The notes beneath the pieces are model-generated. The model was not told the DNA's origin, searched no databases, and was given only the letters and a program-made list of their open reading frames with translations. A program made the translations under genes and the position numbers. Positions 2,145 through 12,466 of a stretch of 64,000 nt of DNA are shown here, piece after piece. The stretch is from an uncultured Acidobacteriota bacterium (lineage in GTDB: Bacteria; Acidobacteriota; Blastocatellia; RBC074), in NCBI GenBank assembly GCA_963699175.1, contig OY969418.1, positions 2,205,352-2,269,351 on the forward strand. Direction: 5' to 3'. Positions within the stretch are counted from its first letter, which is position 1. Every line of letters starts with the position of its first letter.

Positions 2145-2319
2145 TTGGTGCGCGACGTGTGTCGGCCTCATCTTCAAGCCAGGCAGGGAATGATCTCCCT
2201 GTCTGGTTGATTGTTTATCTGGCTCTATGCAAGGAGCAGACAGGGTGTACAGAAATTGGATGGTGTTGCGAGAATCCGCCGCCTTATTTCTGGATCTAGC
2301 ACGCAGTAAAAGGAAAAAT

Positions 2320-4044
2320 ATGAAGCGATTACTGATGTATATCGTCGTTTTGATGTTCCTGACGTTCTGGCTGGTCTTGAGCGCGGGCAATCAAAGTAAA
2401 ACACAGGCGGCTCGGCGTAGTACCGAGGATGTTACCTTCTCGAATCAAATCGTGCGGCTGATGCAGAACCACTGTCAACGCTGTCATCACCCGGACGGGG
2501 CCGCGCCTTTCTCCTTGATGACCTACGAAGAGGCTTATCCATACGCTAGGGCCATTAGATCGGCTGTCCAAACGCGCCGCATGCCGCATGGCGTCTTCAA
2601 TGCGCGCCTCGAGAATGGTTGCGGAGATGTAAATACCTTCGAAGGCCCGCGCCGCCTGCTGGACAGCGAAATCGCCATGTTTGCGGCATGGGTGGAGGCA
2701 GACGCGCCTGAAGGGAACCCCGCCGATATGCCACCGCCCATGACCTTCGATAATGATCCTGGTCATGGCGGCCACGACGAATATTACGATACTTGGCAAG
2801 CCGGCGAGCCTGACATCGAGTTGAACAATGGCCCGGACGGTTTTAAGGTGCCGGGTTCGCTCTATAAAGATTTCTTCCGCCGCTTCCCCATCAAAACCAA
2901 CTACGAGTCGGATCGTTACTTTACCAGCTTCGAGGTGCTGCCTGGCACAGGCGACCTGGGCCGGCAGATCAATGTCGTGCACCACGTGACACTCTTCATT
3001 GATCCCACCTGCGGGTCGCTCGAACAGGAGAAAGCCTTTGCCGCCTCGAATCCGGAAATCAAGGGGGCGGGGTTCGAAGGTGAATTCCTCTACGAGACGA
3101 GTTTGGTCGGCATGTGGTTTCCGGGCACCAACGCGATAGTCTTACCGGCAGGCATCGGCATCAAGATTCCGCGCGGCGCTTGCTTGATAATGGAAATTCA
3201 CTATACCACCTGGCAGCCTGAAGAGGTCGTGGACAAAACCACGATGGGGCTGCGCTGGGCGCGCACGCCGGTCTACTATGAACGCCTCGCGAAGCGGGTC
3301 AGCAATGAAAACTTCGTCATTCCGGCGGGCGCAAAGCACTACATGATTAAGGCGAGCAAGACCATTGATGATCCTGTCACAATCTACTCGATGGCGCCGC
3401 ACATGCATCAGTTCGGGACTGACTTCGTGGCTGATGCGCTGCTTCCGGATGGCCAGAAGAAGTGTCTGATTGATGTCGAATATGATTTCAAGCATCAGGG
3501 CAACTACCTACTCAAAGAGCCGATCCATCTGCCAGCCGGAACGCAAATCACGATTCGTGGCTACTACGACAATACGGAGGATTTCCCGCGCCAGCTCAAT
3601 CATCCGCCGATTAACATTCCGTTTGGGCCGGTCTCCGATAAAGAGATGTGTCAGATCACCATCGGGCTGACTAACGACACTCAGTTGTTGCAGCCGTCGT
3701 CTCCCACCCTCTCGACGATTCGGGTGAACGGCGATAGCTTGATCGTCAACGGCAGCGACCTGCGCCCAGGAGCGTTTATAGAGGTCAACGGCAAGCTGCT
3801 TACCGATACGCAAATGGGCGATAAACAGTCTTCTGTTTTCTCGCTCTCCGATTGGCATGAATTTGCCGATGCGTCGAGTTGCTGCTGTGCGGCGAAGGGT
3901 GCCACCGTCTGCAACTGTGGCAAAGAGTGCAGCCTGGGTAAACCGGTGAAAATCGCTATCGTCAATCCTGATGGCGGACGGTCAGCAACCAGACGCTTTC
4001 TCCTGCGCGACTTGAGAAAAGAACCCAGCCGCATCCAGTATTAG
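2320..4044 (+). CDS. c-type haem (CXXCH) domain fused to a PHM/DBH-like copper type II monooxygenase domain; secreted
   Basis: Start moved to MKRLLMYIVVLMFLTFWLVLSA, a signal peptide preceded by the RBS AAAAGGAAAAAT. CQRCHH haem-binding motif at residues ~55-60. Ordered His/Met ligand set for two Cu sites: VHHVTLF, EIHYTTW, HMHQFG, EMCQIT. Cys-rich C-terminus. Confidence 0.6.
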   Translation: MKRLLMYIVVLMFLTFWLVLSAGNQSKTQAARRSTEDVTFSNQIVRLMQNHCQRCHHPDGAAPFSLMTYEEAYPYARAIRSAVQTRRMPHGVFNARLENGCGDVNTFEGPRRLLDSEIAMFAAWVEADAPEGNPADMPPPMTFDNDPGHGGHDEYYDTWQAGEPDIELNNGPDGFKVPGSLYKDFFRRFPIKTNYESDRYFTSFEVLPGTGDLGRQINVVHHVTLFIDPTCGSLEQEKAFAASNPEIKGAGFEGEFLYETSLVGMWFPGTNAIVLPAGIGIKIPRGACLIMEIHYTTWQPEEVVDKTTMGLRWARTPVYYERLAKRVSNENFVIPAGAKHYMIKASKTIDDPVTIYSMAPHMHQFGTDFVADALLPDGQKKCLIDVEYDFKHQGNYLLKEPIHLPAGTQITIRGYYDNTEDFPRQLNHPPINIPFGPVSDKEMCQITIGLTNDTQLLQPSSPTLSTIRVNGDSLIVNGSDLRPGAFIEVNGKLLTDTQMGDKQSSVFSLSDWHEFADASSCCCAAKGATVCNCGKECSLGKPVKIAIVNPDGGRSATRRFLLRDLRKEPSRIQY

Positions 4045-4230: not shown

Positions 4231-7200
4231 TTAAATGTACTTGGCCAAGACCGCCCGCACGGCCTCCGGGTCGTAAAACTCCTTCACCAACTCTTCCGCG
4301 CGGTAGCCGAGCAACTGGCCCGGCGCGGTGTAGCCGAGGTAGCGCATGCCTTCGGGGCTGCCATCGAAGCGCCCATCCGGCAACAGATCAAGCCACGCGC
4401 CGGGGCCGAAGCTGTAGCGATACAGGAAAGTCTCGCCCCGTTCATAATCCCAGAACTGCAAGCGTCCGGCAGCGCCCGCCGCGACCAGATATTTGCCGTT
4501 TGGCGCAAAAGCGACAGCTTCCACTGACCCCAGATTTCCTGCGAGCGTGCACAGCAGCTTCCCGTCGCACACCTGCCAGAGCCTGACCTTTGCATCAGCA
4601 CTGCCCGAGGCCAGCGTCAAGCCATCGGGCGCAAAGACGACCGAACTCACCTCGTGGGAGTGCCCGACGATTTCGCGCAGCAGCTTGCCGTCGCGCACCT
4701 GCCAGAGCCTGACCTTTTTGTCAGCACTGCCTGATGCCAGCGTCAAGCCATCGGGCGCAAAGGCGACCAACTTCACTGGTAAGGAGTGGCCGGTGAGTTC
4801 GCGCAGCAGCGAGCCATTGCGTACTTGCCAGAGTTTGACCGAGTTGTCATCACTGCTCGAAGCGAGTGTCGCACCATCGGGCGCAAAGGCGACCGCCCTT
4901 ACCCCAGAAGAGTGGCCGGTGAGTTCGCGCAGCAGCTTGCCGTCGCGTACTTGCCAGAGTTTGACCGAGTTGTCATCACTGCTCGAAGCGAGTGTCGCAC
5001 CATCGGGCGCAAAGGCGACCGCCCTTACCCCAGAAGAGTGGCCGGTGAGTTTGCGCAGCAGCTTGCCATCGCGCACCTGCCAGAGCTTGACCGAGCCGTC
5101 ACCACCGCCCGAAGCGAGCGTCGCGCCATCGGGCGCAAAGGCGACCGCATTCACCCTGCCGGAGTGGCTCGCGAGTTCGCGCAACAGCGTGCCATCGCGC
5201 ACCTGCCAGAGCTTGACCGAGCCGTCACCACCGCCCGAAGCGAGCGTCGCGCCATTGGGTGCAAAGGCGACCGCATTCACCCTCCCGGAGTGGCCCCCGA
5301 GTTCGCGCAACAGCGTGCCATCGCGCACCTGCCAGAGCTTGACCGAGCCGTCACCACCGCTCGAAGCGAGCGTCGCACCATCGGGCGCAAAGGCAACTAC
5401 AGTCACCCAATCTAAGTGACCCGCGAGTTCGCGCAGCATCGCGCCATCGCGCACCTGCCAGAGCTTGACCGAGCCGTCATCATCGCCCGAAGCGAGCGTC
5501 GCACCATCGGGCGCAAAGGCAACCGCCCTTACCCAATCTGAGTGGCCCGCAAGTTCGTGCAGCAGCGCGCCATTGCGTACTTGCCAGAGCTTGACCGAGT
5601 TGTCATCACTGCTCGAAGCGAGTGTCGCACCATCGGGCGCAAAGGCGACCGCCCTTACCCCAGAAGAGTGGCCGGTGAGTTTGCGCAGCAGCTTGCCATC
5701 GCGCACCTGCCAGAGCTTGACCGAGCCGTCACCACCGCCCGAAGCGAGCGTCGCGCCATTGGGTGCAAAGGCGACCGCATTCACCCTGCCGGAGTGGCCC
5801 CCGAGTTCGCGCAACAGCGTGCCATCGCGCACCTGCCAGAGCTTGACCGAGCCGTCACCACCGCCCGAAGCGAGCGTCGCGCCATCGGGCGCAAAGGCGA
5901 CCGCATTGGCTGCTTCACCGCCGCCCAACACTTGCAACAACATCCCATCGCTTGCGCGGTAAAGTCGAATCATTCCTTCTCTGTCACATTCGGCCAATAG
6001 TTTGCCATCGCTGCTGTAGGCTAAAGCGAGAATGGAACCTGTCGCACCCAGTTGGACAACCGGGCGCATTTCGCGAGTATCAATGGTGAAGAAGGGCCAA
6101 CCCGTCACCCCTATGAGCACAGCTTGGCGATAATCAGCCCCTGCCAGCCGGGCATTTTCCGTATTGGCTTCAGTTAGGTTGGCTGAGCGCAAATCAGCGC
6201 GGTCGAGCACGGCGTGGCCGAGCTTCGCTTTGGTCAAGTCCGCTCCGGCCAAGTTGGCTTCGGTCAAATCCACACTTTCCAGCACGGCTTCCTGCAATTG
6301 CGCGCCCGCCAATTGCGCACCCGGCGGAACGCGCCCAGCCAGGGCTTGCCGCAACTTTTCGACAGCGCCAATCTCTTCTTCCATCCCGGCGCGGATGCGG
6401 GCGCTCCAATACAGAATTTGCAGCGCGTTTTCCGACACGTTGGCTTGATAAGCTGCGCGCAAAATCTCTTGCAGCGGTTCGCGCAACGCATCCTGCTCAT
6501 CCAGCAGCGCCAGGAAATAGATGGTCTTCTGATCGTAGCGCCGCGTGTTCAGCATCTCGCGCAAGCCGACGGGATCGGCCAAACAATCCTGCAAACGGCG
6601 GGCGAGGAAAAATTCGCCGAACGAGCGGTGCATAAACGTGAAGTTGCCCGCATTGTCGCGTTTGAGGAAACTGGCGCTCTGCAATTCGACGGCGATGTCC
6701 GCCGCCTCTTCATCGCCAAGCTCAAGGCGTTGGTCGGCCACCAGCCGTTCGATAAAGGGGCAGAGTTCTTTGAAATGCGCCGCCTGCGTCGCATCGCGCC
6801 ACATCCGCCAGCCGAGTTCCAGCATCAAGGCCAGCCGCGTCTGTTTCCCCAAGCTGAGTTTGCGCCCCTTGCTGTCTTCACGGTCAATCCAGATGTTGGT
6901 GTAGACGTTGTAAAGATTGGCGGCATTGACCTGCTGCCCGGCTTTTAGACGCGGCAAGGATTTGACGATCATATCCAGCAACAGCGGGCGCGTGGCCAGG
7001 TCTTTCAGATTGTAGATGGCTTGAATCTTCTGCCAATCTTTTGCGTGGTCTTGCGGGCGGGCTTTCTTCAGATAATCCTTGATTTGATCGTCATTGAATT
7101 CCTGCAAATAGACGACCTCGGCGCTCGAACGCTGCCGCAAATCGCGGTAAAGCTCGGTCTCTGTTTCGGAAAGAGTCGGGCCTTCGCCGATGACTTTGAC

Positions 7201-8622
7201 CTGTTCGGTGCGATCTTTGAAATAATGCGTGCGACAGGTGATGACGATCTTGCCGCGCGCTTCGGCCAGGCGGCTCAACTGGCGGAAATTATCCTGCGTC
7301 ACATCCCAACGCACGCGGTCGGCCATCTCGTCAAAGGCATCGAAGAGCAACACGACCTTGCCCAGCCGCACCAGATGCTCGAAGCGCGGGAAGCTGATGT
7401 CGCGCAAGCCGCGCAATTGAAAGTGGCGGCTGACGACACTTTCCAGCGTCTCTTCCTTGCGCACATCCTTGAGCGGAATCAACACCGGCGCGGGATGGCG
7501 CAACGGGTCATCGTGAAAACTGCGCGCCAGTTGGTAAGCCAGAAAACTCGCCAGCGTCGTCTTGCCCGTGCCCAAATCGCCGAGGATGACCATCTGATTA
7601 CGACGCTCATCGCCCAACCATTTGCCGACGTGCGTCAAGGCGGGCAGCTTTTCGTAAACAATGTCGGTCACCAGATCAGGCCGAATAAACCAGTCGTCAC
7701 CCTGCCATTTGGTCTTGGCCTCTTCTTCATAGTCCGCGACCAGCCCGTCAACATAGCTGTCTAGCGGCACCAACTCGCGCAACAGTTCAGCGTAGGTGAT
7801 GCAATGCACGCCCGCCGCTTCCAACGCTGTGCGCGTCTCGGCGGCAAAGCCCTGCGCCGAGACGGCCACGGTGCGGAAGGCAGGCAGCTTCTGTTGCGTC
7901 ATCAACCGTTGCGCCAGAATCTGGTCGCGTTCCTTCGCTGTAATCTGCTTGTCTTTGCATTCGACGATGGCGCTGGTGGGCAGGCCGCCGACCTTCTGTT
8001 CAATCGTCAAATCAATCTGCATCCCGCTCAGATTGCTGTCCTGTTTGGCATCGAAGCCGAGCAGCCGGTAAAGCGTCGCCACTTCGTCTTCAAAGCGTTT
8101 GCCCGCCGCGTAATTCTGTCGGCCACGCGCCGCCGGATCGAGTTTGTGTTCGCGGAACTCGAACTCTTCGCGCTCGCGGAATTGGAAGCCGTGGCGCGGC
8201 AGGTCTAGGGCTTCGACCAGTTGGCGCAGGCGCAAGTCGAAATCATCGTCGTTGCGGAAATCAATATGCAGGATGCCGCGCAAGGTCGGCTCGACCGCGC
8301 AGTCTTCGAGCAGCAGCGGAATCAGCGGGCGTTCTTTCGAGAGAATGTCAGCGGAGTGTTGCGCGAAAGCTTCGGCGCGCGTCCATTCTTTCTTGACGCC
8401 GAAGTAGCTGCGGCTGAAGACGGCGACCAGCTTGCGCGCTTGTTTCAAACCTTCGTTGATGCGTTCCAGCAGATTGTCGCCGGGTCGCAATTCCCACCGG
8501 TCGAACCACACGCGCACGCCTTCGTCGCGCAAGCGCGTGGCCAGCCGCTCGCACCAATCCCCATCCTCGCGCGCGTGACTGAGGAACGCATCGTAGGGTT
8601 TGTCGTTCTCGTTCTGAGCCAT
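4231..8622 (-). CDS. NLR-like STAND protein: TIR, PD-(D/E)xK (Mrr-like) nuclease, NACHT P-loop NTPase, pentapeptide repeats, ~14 WD40 repeats
   Basis: AGGAGG RBS 7 nt upstream. N-terminal YDAFLSHAREDGDW...FSRSYFGVKKEWTRAE; the W-x3-E matches the TIR catalytic-glutamate motif. GMQIDLTIEQKV...IVECKDK has a D...E-x-K spacing. Walker A VILGDLGTGKTT and Walker B VVLLFDAFDEM. AQLAGAQLQEAVLESVDLTEANLAGADLTKAKL pentapeptide repeats. 42-aa WD40 units (SVKLWQVRDG...HSxxVxAVAFAPDGATLASGGGDG) repeated about 14 times. Confidence 0.85.
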   Translation of the reverse strand: MAQNENDKPYDAFLSHAREDGDWCERLATRLRDEGVRVWFDRWELRPGDNLLERINEGLKQARKLVAVFSRSYFGVKKEWTRAEAFAQHSADILSKERPLIPLLLEDCAVEPTLRGILHIDFRNDDDFDLRLRQLVEALDLPRHGFQFREREEFEFREHKLDPAARGRQNYAAGKRFEDEVATLYRLLGFDAKQDSNLSGMQIDLTIEQKVGGLPTSAIVECKDKQITAKERDQILAQRLMTQQKLPAFRTVAVSAQGFAAETRTALEAAGVHCITYAELLRELVPLDSYVDGLVADYEEEAKTKWQGDDWFIRPDLVTDIVYEKLPALTHVGKWLGDERRNQMVILGDLGTGKTTLASFLAYQLARSFHDDPLRHPAPVLIPLKDVRKEETLESVVSRHFQLRGLRDISFPRFEHLVRLGKVVLLFDAFDEMADRVRWDVTQDNFRQLSRLAEARGKIVITCRTHYFKDRTEQVKVIGEGPTLSETETELYRDLRQRSSAEVVYLQEFNDDQIKDYLKKARPQDHAKDWQKIQAIYNLKDLATRPLLLDMIVKSLPRLKAGQQVNAANLYNVYTNIWIDREDSKGRKLSLGKQTRLALMLELGWRMWRDATQAAHFKELCPFIERLVADQRLELGDEEAADIAVELQSASFLKRDNAGNFTFMHRSFGEFFLARRLQDCLADPVGLREMLNTRRYDQKTIYFLALLDEQDALREPLQEILRAAYQANVSENALQILYWSARIRAGMEEEIGAVEKLRQALAGRVPPGAQLAGAQLQEAVLESVDLTEANLAGADLTKAKLGHAVLDRADLRSANLTEANTENARLAGADYRQAVLIGVTGWPFFTIDTREMRPVVQLGATGSILALAYSSDGKLLAECDREGMIRLYRASDGMLLQVLGGGEAANAVAFAPDGATLASGGGDGSVKLWQVRDGTLLRELGGHSGRVNAVAFAPNGATLASGGGDGSVKLWQVRDGKLLRKLTGHSSGVRAVAFAPDGATLASSSDDNSVKLWQVRNGALLHELAGHSDWVRAVAFAPDGATLASGDDDGSVKLWQVRDGAMLRELAGHLDWVTVVAFAPDGATLASSGGDGSVKLWQVRDGTLLRELGGHSGRVNAVAFAPNGATLASGGGDGSVKLWQVRDGTLLRELASHSGRVNAVAFAPDGATLASGGGDGSVKLWQVRDGKLLRKLTGHSSGVRAVAFAPDGATLASSSDDNSVKLWQVRDGKLLRELTGHSSGVRAVAFAPDGATLASSSDDNSVKLWQVRNGSLLRELTGHSLPVKLVAFAPDGLTLASGSADKKVRLWQVRDGKLLREIVGHSHEVSSVVFAPDGLTLASGSADAKVRLWQVCDGKLLCTLAGNLGSVEAVAFAPNGKYLVAAGAAGRLQFWDYERGETFLYRYSFGPGAWLDLLPDGRFDGSPEGMRYLGYTAPGQLLGYRAEELVKEFYDPEAVRAVLAKYI
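4490..5900 (-). repeat. tandem 126-bp near-identical coding repeats (WD40 blades) inside the NLR-like gene
   Basis: Blocks such as 4862-4990, 4988-5116 and 5620-5750 are almost identical at the nucleotide level. Antisense and out-of-frame ORFs in the track (4493..5419, 4786..5415, 5465..5962, 5542..6000) are artefacts of this periodicity. Confidence 0.8.
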
Positions 8623-9488: not shown

Positions 9489-9575
9489 GTGCGGTACAGG
9501 GAGCGGTAGCGACCTGCTGGATTCGTGAGGTGCACGCTCCCGCAGTACCAGGTCGCTACCGCTCCCGTACCGCAC
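9489..9575. repeat. palindromic intergenic element, family X copy 1
   Basis: gtgcggtacagggagcggtagcgacctg ... caggtcgctaccgctcccgtaccgcac; ~28-bp arms with a 32-nt loop. Confidence 0.6.
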
Positions 9576-9597
9576 CTGCTTCCTACAGAGGACTTCG

Positions 9598-12466
9598 TTT
9601 GAAGAAATTAGCGGCTCGCTTTTGGAGCGTAATTTTACTCATAGTCTTTAGCTCCGCGGCAATTGCCGCACAATCAAGCGAGATTTTACGCGGGCAGATC
9701 GTTGATGAGCTGAGCGACGTTATTCCCGGTGCGCAGCTCACGCTGACGGCAACCGGCGGCAAGCAACTCACTGCCGTCAGCGATGCCAACGGCGAATTCA
9801 CGCTACTACACGTCGCGCCCGGCGTTTACACACTGACCGTCACCGCCGAAGGCTTTCAGCCCTACAATGAACGCGAACTGCGTTTACCGCCCAAACCGCC
9901 GCTGCTCAAACTCACGCTGAAAGTCGCCGCCGTCAACATCGAAACCGAAGTCAAAGCCGATGAACCGGGCGTTTCCGTCGAGCCGGATCAGAACATGGAT
10001 GCGATTGTGTTAGGCGAAGACTTCATCGAGACCCTGCCTGACAATGAAGATGATCTGCGCGAATACTTGCTGATGCTGGCTGGCCCCGGCGCGGCTGGCG
10101 CGGCGGGCGGACAGGGCGGCGCGCAGATTTACATCAACGGTTTTCGCGGCGGACGCTTGCCGCCGCGCGAAGCCATCCTGCAAGTACGCATCAACCAAAG
10201 CCCCTTCTCCGCCGAATTCGAGCGTCCCGGCGCGGGCCGCGTAGAAATCATCACCAAGCCGGGCAACAACGAATGGCACGGCGGCTTCGGCGCGAACTTC
10301 CGCAACTCGGCGCTCGACGCGCGCAACGCGTTTGCGGCGGTCAAACCTGAGTTGGAGCAGAAGCGTTATTCGTTCAACCTGAGCGGCCCGCTGATTCGCA
10401 AGCGCATGTCGTTCTTCGCCAACCTGGAACAACGCCACTTGATCGGCAGCGGGACGGTGCGCGCTGAAACGCTCAGCGGGCCGTTCGTCGCCAACGTGGC
10501 CGCGCCCAACGAGAGCGCCTATTTCAGCGCGCGCGCTGATTATCTGCTCAATCAGAAGAACACTATCAACCTGACCTACTCGCGCTCTTCGTCCGAAGCG
10601 CTAAACCGCGAATTCGCCGCGCGGCTCGCTAGCGGCGGGACGAGCAACTTCACCTTGCCCGAACGCGCTTCGAGTTCCGACGATGTGAATCACACGTTGC
10701 AACTGGCCGAGACCTGGCTCATCAGCGCGCGGCTGATTCACGAGTCGCGCTTGCGCTTGCAATACGACGAGCGTCATCTGCGCGCCAATACACAGGGCTA
10801 CGCGGTCAACGTACTCGATGCGTTTTACGGTGGCGGCGCAACCTGTTGTCCCAACAACTCGCGCCAATTCACAGCAGAGTGGCAGGACTATCTGACTTAC
10901 ACGCGCAAGCGGCAGACCCTGCGCGGCGGCGTGCAGGTCGAGTACAACCGGCAGAACGATTTCAGCGCGAGCAATTTCAACGGTACTTACACCTTCTCCA
11001 GTCTCGATCAATATCGCCGCGCATTGACTGACCCGCAAGCGCGCGCCACTCAGTTCACGCAGAGCCTGGGCAATCCGCGTTTGCGCTACGACCTTTATCA
11101 AGCCGCGTGGTTTGTGCAAGACGACGTGCGTTTGCGGCAAGGCCTGACGCTCTCGTTCGGCTTGCGCCACGAATTCCAGTCGCATTTGGAAGACAAGCTG
11201 AATTTCGCGCCGCGCTTCGGCGTGGCTTGGTCGCCCTTCAAAGATCGCAAGACGACTTTGCGCGTGGGCGCGGGGATTTTCTACGCGCGGCTGACGGGCG
11301 GAGTTTATAACACCACGCTGCGCTACAACGGCATAACGCAACAGAGCATCATCATTCCCACGCCGCTCTTCCCCGATCCCTTCGCTGGCAATCCGAACAT
11401 CCGGCAAAGCAGCGCCATCCGCTGGCTGCTTGCGCCGGAGTTGCAAGCGCCCTACGTCATCAATTTCAACGGAACGGTCGAGCGGCAATTGACGCGCTCA
11501 GTGGTCACGACCTTTGGCTACCACTTCACGCGCGGCGTACATCAATTTCGCGCGCGCAACATCAACGCGCCGCTGCTTGATGGCGTGCGCCCTGATCCAA
11601 CGCAAGGCAATCTCTTTCAGATCGAATCTTCCGCCGCCTCGCAATATCACGGCCTGCAATTCCGGCTGGATCGTCGCCTGGGGCGTAGCTTCACAGCTTT
11701 CGGTAGCTATGCGCTGGCGTGGACGCAGAGCGATGCCGACGGCCCAACGTTCTTTCCGGCGAACAGCTACAATCTGCGTGATGAATGGAGCCGCGCGTTG
11801 ATTGATCGGCGGCACAATCTCTACATCGGCGGCAGTCTGCGTTTGCCCTACGGCTGGCGTGTTGCGCCGACTGTTAATGCATATTCCGGCACGCCGTTCA
11901 ATATAACGACAGGGCGCGACGAGAACGGCGATTCGCGCCTCAACGACCGCTTTGTCGGCGTCGGGCGCAATGCTGATTTGCTGGCGAGCCTTTATCCGAG
12001 TTTGCCTGATCGCTGTCTGCTCAATTGCAGCGCGGGCAGTCAACCAATCAATCTCCGCGATTTTCTCATTGCCAATTTCCCGAACGGCGTGCGTGCCGAA
12101 GGGCCGGGTTACTTCAGCGCCAATCTGAGCGTCACTAAAACCATTGGCTTTGGCCACCGCAAAGCGAACACGACCGCAGCCAGGCCGGGCGCGACAAATG
12201 CCAAAAGCGCCGAGAAGCTCAACGCAAAGAGTGCAGGATTGAACGGTCAGAGCAAGCCCGGCAAAGTTGGTGGTCAGGCCAACGCGCCGAATAACAACAG
12301 CGAAGCACCGCGTTTCAACTTGCAACTCGGCGCACAGATCACCAATCTTTTCAACCGCGTCAACTTCGGACAATACAGCGGCGTGCTGACCTCGCCGTTT
12401 TTCGCGCGGGCGAACAGCGCCAGCACAGCGCGCCAGTTTGAGTTTACGTTGCGTTTCGGTTTTTGA
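9598..12466 (+). CDS. TonB-dependent outer-membrane receptor with N-terminal carboxypeptidase-regulatory-like domain
   Basis: The start probably lies downstream of the track start, at TTG 9598 (LKKLAARFWSVILLIVFSSAAIAAQ signal peptide, AGAGGA RBS). The track start at 9530 lies inside the palindromic element. CarboxypepD_reg-like ILRGQIVDELSDVIPGAQLTLTATGG...GEFTL. ~950-aa beta-barrel ending ...FEFTLRFGF. Confidence 0.8.

Follow-up and report, generated by a model that had tools for sequence, protein, structure and literature searches.

Copper monooxygenases of the PHM/DBH type serve animals in the production of hormones, and, to our knowledge, what is known of them comes almost entirely from ascorbate-dependent animal enzymes. 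Electron transfer from CuH to CuM, their two copper sites, over a gap of ~11 Å is still a matter of debate. Partnerships between c-type cytochromes and other copper enzymes have been described in bacteria. For example, extracytoplasmic c-type cytochrome domains reduce the copper centres of bacterial lytic polysaccharide monooxygenases (LPMOs), as is the case for X183 of Cellvibrio Cbp2D/E and for Teredinibacter TtX183A (PDB 8Q1V; PMC8981238, PMC10916295). Similarly, RpNiR of Ralstonia pickettii combines a tethered class-I-like cytochrome c with a two-copper periplasmic nitrite reductase in a self-contained electron-transfer chain (PMC6038957, PMC13324648). Here we describe a gene from an uncultured Acidobacteriota bacterium (Blastocatellia, RBC074) which occupies positions 2320..4044 (+ strand) of a 64,000-nucleotide stretch of DNA, referred to below as the window (GenBank assembly GCA_963699175.1, contig OY969418.1, positions 2,205,352 to 2,269,351 of the forward strand). 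It is a complete coding sequence of 574 amino acids plus stop, assigned to a cytochrome c fused to a PHM-like protein; all coordinates given below for parts of this gene are also on the + strand.

The protein consists of a signal peptide, a CxxCH domain of ~105 residues, a two-domain PHM/DBH-like core and a C-terminal beta-sandwich of ~110 residues. We consider it probable that this is an exported three-module enzyme, in which a haem-c cytochrome feeds a binuclear copper oxygenase of the PHM/DBH type and the beta-sandwich forms the third module; that haem and copper are bound, that electrons flow in this direction and that the reaction is a monooxygenation are all points that we infer. A fusion of this kind had been proposed in a preliminary description of the same DNA, prepared without database searches. 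Every motif quoted there was present at its place in the translation, and our results support the view that the observation is real and its interpretation holds.

The copper core and its predicted ligands

The preliminary description had recognized an ordered set of copper ligands (HH, H, HxH and M), and this was borne out by comparison with PHM and with the family at large. A word-indexed search yielded 297 homologues, and 271 retrieved proteins, down to ~26% identity, were aligned to the family hidden Markov model (HMM). When the family profile was compared with the PHM catalytic core using hhalign (the PHM sequence was identical to 1SDW_A), the match had a probability of 98.2% and an E-value of 3.5e-14 over 238 columns, and all six copper ligands were paired with H107, H108, H172, H242, H244 and M314 of rat PHM. 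The paired segments, family first, were VVHHvtLF/tVHHmlLF, EVHY/qVHY, PHMHQlG/vHtHhlG and EMCq/EMCn. Each ligand was kept in 267–271 of the 271 homologues. The two histidines H221-H222 (2980..2985), located in the VHHVTLF motif (residues 220-226, 2977-2997), aligned with the CuH ligands H107/H108 and were conserved in 270 of the homologues, and H294 (3199..3201), in the EIHYTTW motif (residues 292-298, 3193-3213), aligned with the CuH ligand H172 and was present in all 271. Also, H361-M-H363 (3400..3408), at the start of the HMHQFG motif (residues 361-366, 3400-3417), corresponded to the CuM ligands H242/H244 (270 and 269 homologues), and M443 (3646..3648), in the EMCQIT motif (residues 442-447, 3643-3660), to the CuM ligand M314 (267 homologues). 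A smaller alignment of 92 sequences, with a mean column identity of 23%, contained 15 invariant columns, eight of which were H221, H222, H294, H361, H363, M443, M88 and P89. By a hypergeometric estimate, the probability that six columns named beforehand all fall among 15 of 574 is ~1e-10. In addition, among 66 sequences with C382, 59 also had C444, the neighbour of M443, and these two residues likely form a disulfide analogous to C293-C315 of PHM, judging from the alignment.

Searches with this protein alone were much less informative and weigh against our reading. Cu2_monooxygen (PF01082) was matched over residues 217-297 with an E-value of 0.0043 (17.7 bits against a gathering threshold of 30), and Cu2_monoox_C (PF03712) over residues 346-446 with 0.01 (15.8 bits against 23). 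These two sub-threshold domains were in the correct order along the protein. Among 28 family members tested, Cu2_monoox_C was matched by 18 (best E-value 5.7e-9) and Cu2_monooxygen by 13 (best 1.8e-5). A single-sequence phmmer search of PDB sequences returned nothing relevant. A profile of the 92 sequences was swamped in PDB by TPR matches from fused domains and was discarded in favour of a TPR-free alignment, whose family profile found rat PHM with an E-value of 1.6e-11. Thus, the HMM check suggested in the preliminary description fell below gathering scores for the protein itself and succeeded for its relatives and for the family profile.

Structure prediction gave a clearer picture. The AlphaFold2 model, built on the 92-sequence alignment, had a mean predicted local distance difference test score (pLDDT) of 89 and a predicted template modelling score (pTM) of 0.85; the latter refers to the whole chain and suggests that the domains are packed in a defined way. 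In a Foldseek search of PDB with this model, the best matches were 31 PHM entries (E-values 1.9e-14 to 3e-10, target TM-scores 0.61-0.69), with TM-scores of 0.67-0.69 for the best entries and an alignment of ~307 columns that covers PHM over its full length. Chains of human DBH ranked among them (E-values ~6e-13 to 7e-13), and the next unrelated match was at 8e-6. The overall fold of the model therefore matched PHM and then DBH, as the preliminary description had anticipated. On the basis of HMM comparison, hhalign and Foldseek, we assigned a PHM N-domain-like beta-sandwich with the CuH site to residues 161-315 (2800..3264) and a PHM C-domain-like beta-sandwich with the CuM site to residues 316-452 (3265..3675). 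These results support the identification of the predicted copper core, with its two consecutive beta-sandwich domains, as a homologue of PHM and DBH.

Conservation did not extend to the substrate-binding residues of PHM. In that enzyme, R240, N316 and Y318 hold the C-terminal carboxylate of the substrate. They were aligned by hhalign with A359, Q445 and T447, and these columns varied across the family (Y/T/A, Q/D/H and W/T/F, respectively). Because the carboxylate-binding residues are missing, the alignment indicates that the protein is not a peptidylglycine hydroxylase and that its substrate is not a glycine-extended peptide; the substrate probably differs between subfamilies.

The loss of these residues also leaves room for chemistry other than hydroxylation, which counts against a monooxygenase. 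In an alternative that we regard as unlikely, the architecture would be the same and the haem would supply electrons to a non-hydroxylating copper core, i.e., an oxidase, peroxygenase or reductase that reduces, for example, O2, H2O2 or nitrite at CuM, so that the protein would act as a periplasmic detoxifying or terminal redox enzyme. This alternative would agree with the variability of the substrate-binding positions. Also, PHM has been crystallized with nitrite, azide or CO at CuM (3mib, 3mlk and 3mlj), and tethered cytochrome-copper nitrite reductases exist (PMC6038957). Besides, neighbourhood clustering of 80 loci found no substrate-related partner gene, which favours the alternative; our own reading is weakened in that neither a conserved partner gene nor a substrate clue nor expression data were found. 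However, the strict Met ligand in the context of HxH...M and HH...H is the signature of the substrate-hydroxylating enzymes PHM and DBH. The occurrence of 2-5 divergent paralogues and of TPR, LTD and propeller appendages would also be better explained by diversified organic substrates.

The putative haem-c module and the proposed flow of electrons

The protein begins with MKR followed by a hydrophobic stretch of ~20 residues, and we assigned residues 1-31 (2320..2412), which mostly fall within a helix of the AlphaFold2 model (residues 2-33), to a signal peptide or membrane anchor. Attachment of haem c requires export to the periplasm. The lipobox-like position carries Cys in ~47 of the 271 homologues, which is consistent with export, and a location outside the cytoplasm would also fit the ResA/DsbE-like periplasmic thioredoxins to which some family members are fused. 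Taken together, these sequence features are consistent with an exported, periplasm-facing protein. The thioredoxin fusions were seen in P0050-P0053 and in ~27 representatives as an N-terminal extension of ~200 residues, in which a ResA/DsbE/TlpA-like thiol-disulfide oxidoreductase precedes the cytochrome module; proteins of this type normally keep apocytochrome CxxCH motifs reduced.

Residues 36-140 (2425..2739) were assigned to a monohaem c-type cytochrome-like domain on the basis of conservation and of a domain model with three main helices. In this model, the first helix spans domain residues 7-18 and is directly followed by CxxCH at 19-23; a long middle helix and a C-terminal helix complete the domain, and the same arrangement was found in the AlphaFold2 model of the protein. 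The CQRCH haem-c attachment motif (C52/C55/H56, residues 52-56, 2473..2487) was present in 265-266 of the 271 homologues, the remainder being gaps or truncations. In the 92-sequence alignment, its three residues were conserved in at least 90% of sequences and the shortfall was due to fragments only. An invariant R-x-M-P follows the long middle helix. It includes M88-P89 (2581..2586; 270 of 271 homologues), and M88, located 32 residues downstream of CxxCH with a class-I-like spacing, is a plausible candidate for the distal (sixth) haem ligand. Conservation of CxxCH and Met-Pro together with the export signal strongly suggests that the N-terminal module would bind haem c with His/Met ligation.

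Similarity searches with this domain gave weaker signals. A domain profile built from 25 sequences had 26 weak matches in PDB, most of which were c-type cytochromes or cytochrome subunits, including a cytochrome c-550-like protein (E-value 0.017), the monohaem cytochrome c 4rlr (0.019), the haem domain of hydrazine synthase alpha (0.038) and many c6 cytochromes that spanned the whole domain (0.1-1). Pfam Cytochrome_CBB3 was matched by 14 of the 28 family members tested (best 3.6e-5). Several results stand on the other side. For this protein alone, Cytochrome_CBB3 was matched at 0.062, and no cytochrome family reached its gathering score. Foldseek with the isolated N-domain model returned no significant neighbour and nothing below an E-value of 2.6, and hhalign against Pseudomonas aeruginosa cytochrome c551 was weak (probability 14%), with M88 not aligned with Met61 of c551. 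Of the claim that a haem-c domain follows the signal peptide, the motif and the export signal were thus upheld and the cytochrome fold was not confirmed by Foldseek; similarly, the comparison with cytochrome-family HMMs was sub-threshold for the protein and positive for half of the members tested.

The sub-threshold Pfam matches and the failure of Foldseek to find a cytochrome neighbour would fit a different reading, in which the CxxCH segment is haem-free and has a structural or metal-binding role, and the protein is either a PHM homologue of the ordinary, reductant-dependent kind or a binding protein without catalytic activity. We regard this as extremely improbable, given that CxxCH and Met-Pro at class-I-like spacing are invariant in ~270 sequences, that the helix-CxxCH topology fits a cytochrome, that the weak PDB matches are mostly c-type cytochromes, that half of the members tested match Cytochrome_CBB3, and that the export signal needed for haem-c attachment is present.

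The relationship between the two modules was consistent throughout the family. Because every full-length homologue had the cytochrome module, the alignment indicates that this module and the copper core have co-evolved as a unit; the C-terminal modules were variable. An obligate haem fusion suggests a reductant other than ascorbate, and a cytochrome-fed copper monooxygenase, as proposed in the preliminary description, is reasonable to infer. In such an enzyme, the first module would be a small monohaem c-type cytochrome with haem attached at C52/C55 and axially ligated by H56 and probably M88. The second would be a non-coupled binuclear copper oxygenase with an electron-accepting CuH (H221, H222 and H294) and an O2-activating CuM (H361, H363 and M443), and the third, the C-terminal beta-sandwich, would most likely position the enzyme or its substrate. 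The tethered haem would take single electrons from periplasmic respiratory carriers and pass them to CuH, replacing the supply by ascorbate (and cytochrome b561) of animal PHM and DBH. CuH would then reduce CuM, where O2 would bind and a C-H bond of the substrate would be hydroxylated. The substrate would lie in the cleft between the domains, and the C-terminal module may help to recruit it.

The fusion alone leaves the direction of electron flow unfixed, and many periplasmic quinohaemoprotein and cytochrome-fused dehydrogenases work in the opposite direction. By analogy, the copper domain might oxidize a substrate and the haem might pass the electrons to the respiratory chain in a dehydrogenase-like, energy-conserving reaction. 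We give this possibility little credence: no dehydrogenase is known in the PHM/DBH family, the His2Met site of CuM is tuned for O2 activation, and neither Pfam nor the AlphaFold2 model revealed an additional cofactor domain in the protein.

C-terminal domain, family and gene neighbourhood

Residues 455-565 (3682..4014) form a subfamily-specific accessory domain, delineated from the strands of the AlphaFold2 model and from the alignment. It was modelled as a seven-stranded beta-sandwich with pLDDT of 92-95 outside a Cys-rich insertion. This domain had no Pfam match and no meaningful match among NCBIfam models or PDB sequences; the best were a weak match to NCBIfam CoaZ_rpt_PGGG and PDB matches with E-values of 0.22 or worse. 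It was common only to the closest relatives, down to ~40-55% identity. In other members, the chain stops directly after the core or continues into a lamin-tail, Soli_cterm, TPR or TolB-like propeller module.

The Cys-rich sequence CCCAAKGATVCNCGKEC was indeed present, at residues 521-537 (3880..3930). It had previously been taken for a tail of the protein and is instead a clade-specific insertion inside the C-terminal domain, between DWxE(F/L) and GKxVxIAxVNPDGG. The insertion was found only in the nearest clade (P0001-P0010 and P0015), in which CCCA...CxC is kept and the spacer varies from ~5 to ~70 residues; it was absent from P0011-P0025, and sister sequences had a single Cys at this position. 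The model had low pLDDT (61-66) over the insertion. Judging from the sequence, its cysteines could form three disulfides or, alternatively, bind Cu(I) as thiolates.

The family is very large. In an exhaustive profile search, which covered 1.84 billion cluster representatives, at least 6,449 clusters (50% identity) had E-values of 1e-30 or below, and 17,305 had E-values of 1e-10 or below. A genome scan detected more than 586 loci, distributed among Acidobacteriota, Planctomycetota, Verrucomicrobiota, Latescibacterota, Armatimonadota, Methylomirabilota, Bacteroidota and others. Because the cytochrome and PHM-like core are the architecture of the whole family, the haem-copper fusion is not special to 2320..4044, and this locus is an ordinary member. 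Among 80 loci fetched, 25 had 2-5 family open reading frames (ORFs), usually adjacent and on the same strand, and four to five divergent tandem paralogues were seen in single loci (L029, L030, L036, L047, L074 and L080). Also, P0121 and P0122 each had two complete cores in one chain. Among cultured bacteria, Tundrisphaera sp. TA3, for instance, carries two copies (L012 and L014).

Members of the family are named in databases as "hypothetical protein", "mono/diheme cytochrome c family protein", "TPR repeat protein" or "ascorbate-dependent monooxygenase", and the core of the cytochrome-PHM family was not represented among NCBIfam models. In the literature, subscription-only sources not being covered, we found no paper characterizing a bacterial cytochrome-fused PHM/DBH homologue, in agreement with the earlier remark that such enzymes are essentially uncharacterised. 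These sequences, abundant in databases yet essentially unnamed, are an uncharacterised variant of PHM/DBH enzymes. A broader reading, which we put forward tentatively, is that they are widespread, self-sufficient haem-c/Cu2 monooxygenases that draw on respiratory electrons rather than ascorbate and hydroxylate substrates outside the cytoplasm, e.g., peptides, cell-envelope polymers or environmental polymers. Paralogue arrays and exchanged C-terminal binding modules would set the substrate range, and the CCC...CxC...C loop found in the clade of our protein could be a built-in Cu(I) store or delivery site serving both copper centres.

With regard to the gene itself, a long ORF at 2227..4044 (+) of the window includes the coding sequence. 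A start codon at 2227 was rejected and 2320 (MKRLLMYIVV...) was preferred, as in the preliminary description, because close homologues all begin with MKR(L/F)L, a putative ribosome-binding site (AAGGA) is located at 2310-2314, five nucleotides 5' of the ATG, and a terminator-like hairpin follows the upstream gene at 2177..2208 (+). The hairpin, a consensus match only, combines a T-rich tail with a stem of 13 bp, of which 7 are GC pairs. The downstream neighbour (4231..8622) is convergent with our gene. Considering the hairpin and the convergent neighbour, the 2320..4044 gene is therefore most likely transcribed alone, as a putative monocistronic unit.

The upstream gene (18-2144, +) codes for a Kelch/Rax2-like beta-propeller protein that ends in TIGR03437 Soli_cterm (E-value 5e-39), which, like the names of the best matches, indicates that the DNA comes from an acidobacterium. 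In the cytochrome-PHM family, P0021 and P0024 also carry Soli_cterm at their C-terminus. The downstream gene (4231-8622, -) codes for a protein of 1463 residues with a TIR-like region at the N-terminus, a P-loop NACHT/STAND-like region in the centre, a pentapeptide-repeat stretch and ~12 near-identical WD40 repeats. This protein might function in immunity or signalling, as a member of the STAND type. Long + strand ORFs at 4400-6000 of the window (e.g., 4493-5419 and 4786-5415) lie opposite the WD40 repeats and are most likely artefacts of repetitive, GC-rich coding on the other strand. A receptor with CarboxypepD_reg and OMP_b-brl_4 domains (9530-12466, +) is located 5.5 kb downstream of our gene, ahead of genes for sulfatase, 2-keto-3-deoxy-galactonokinase and rhamnosidase, and thereby stands in a context of polysaccharide utilisation. 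By eye, this receptor closely resembles cluster C1, which immediately precedes family members in L002, L046, L048 and L061. A CarboxypepD_reg outer-membrane receptor was rejected as a partner of the family, as it occurred in 11 of 80 loci, about the rough chance estimate for receptor-rich Acidobacteria. Similarly, an amidohydrolase/ABC cluster recurred near family members in these loci only in Thermoanaerobaculia. Genes for P0006, P0009 and P0015 adjoin one for a protein of 584 residues that has a Tat signal and a domain (VCPO_2nd/PAP2) like that of vanadium chloroperoxidase, and which was read at 5532-7286 of L081 and on two JGI contigs. This protein and the closest relatives of our protein may be a functional pair of extracytoplasmic oxidative enzymes; no homologue of the vanadium-haloperoxidase-like neighbour was found in the window.

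Comparison with known systems

The significance of the protein lies in its architecture, which is a lead for enzymologists; the 2320..4044 locus itself is modest and its neighbourhood is uninformative on substrate or physiology. If our reading is true, the covalent tethering of haem in a bacterial version would offer a natural means of triggering electron injection and following it optically, and the protein might be expressible in bacteria. The family is spread over the phyla that dominate soil and freshwater, and several copies often occur in one genome; its oxygenase chemistry, if true, could matter for the turnover of organic matter or of the cell envelope in the organisms that carry it.

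Among known systems, PHM, the catalytic core of PAM (PDB 1PHM/1SDW/3MIH), has the same fold of two beta-sandwiches, the six aligned ligands, and the EMC motif with a probable disulfide beside the Met ligand, although its sequence identity with our protein is only ~14-20%. PHM lacks the N-terminal haem-c domain. Our protein further differs from PHM in being bacterial and, as predicted from its sequence, periplasmic, in belonging to a family without an evident ascorbate supply, in its extra C-terminal beta-sandwich, and in the replacement of R240, N316 and Y318 by A359, Q445 and T447. The same catalytic core is found in DBH, tyramine beta-hydroxylase and MOXD (PDB 4ZEL), the second-best structural match (E-value 6e-13). 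DBH is also a multidomain protein with an extra N-terminal domain before the copper core. However, this domain (DOMON) is a beta-sandwich without covalent haem, whereas the N-terminal module of our protein is alpha-helical with CxxCH, and the C-terminal dimerisation domain of DBH differs from the C-terminal beta-sandwich described here.

The closest parallels for the cytochrome module come from outside the PHM/DBH family. X183 and the LPMOs follow the logic that we propose for our protein, in that a copper oxygenase obtains its electrons from an extracytoplasmic c-type cytochrome module. In contrast to our protein, LPMOs have a different fold with mononuclear histidine-brace copper, and their cytochrome resides on a separate multidomain protein; in Foldseek, 8q1v and our N-domain model were not significantly similar (E-value 7.3, TM-scores 0.27-0.34). 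RpNiR, like our protein, is a natural fusion of a cytochrome c and a copper enzyme. It differs in having T1/T2 copper in a cupredoxin fold, a C-terminal cytochrome and a trimeric structure, and in catalysing nitrite reduction rather than O2 activation.

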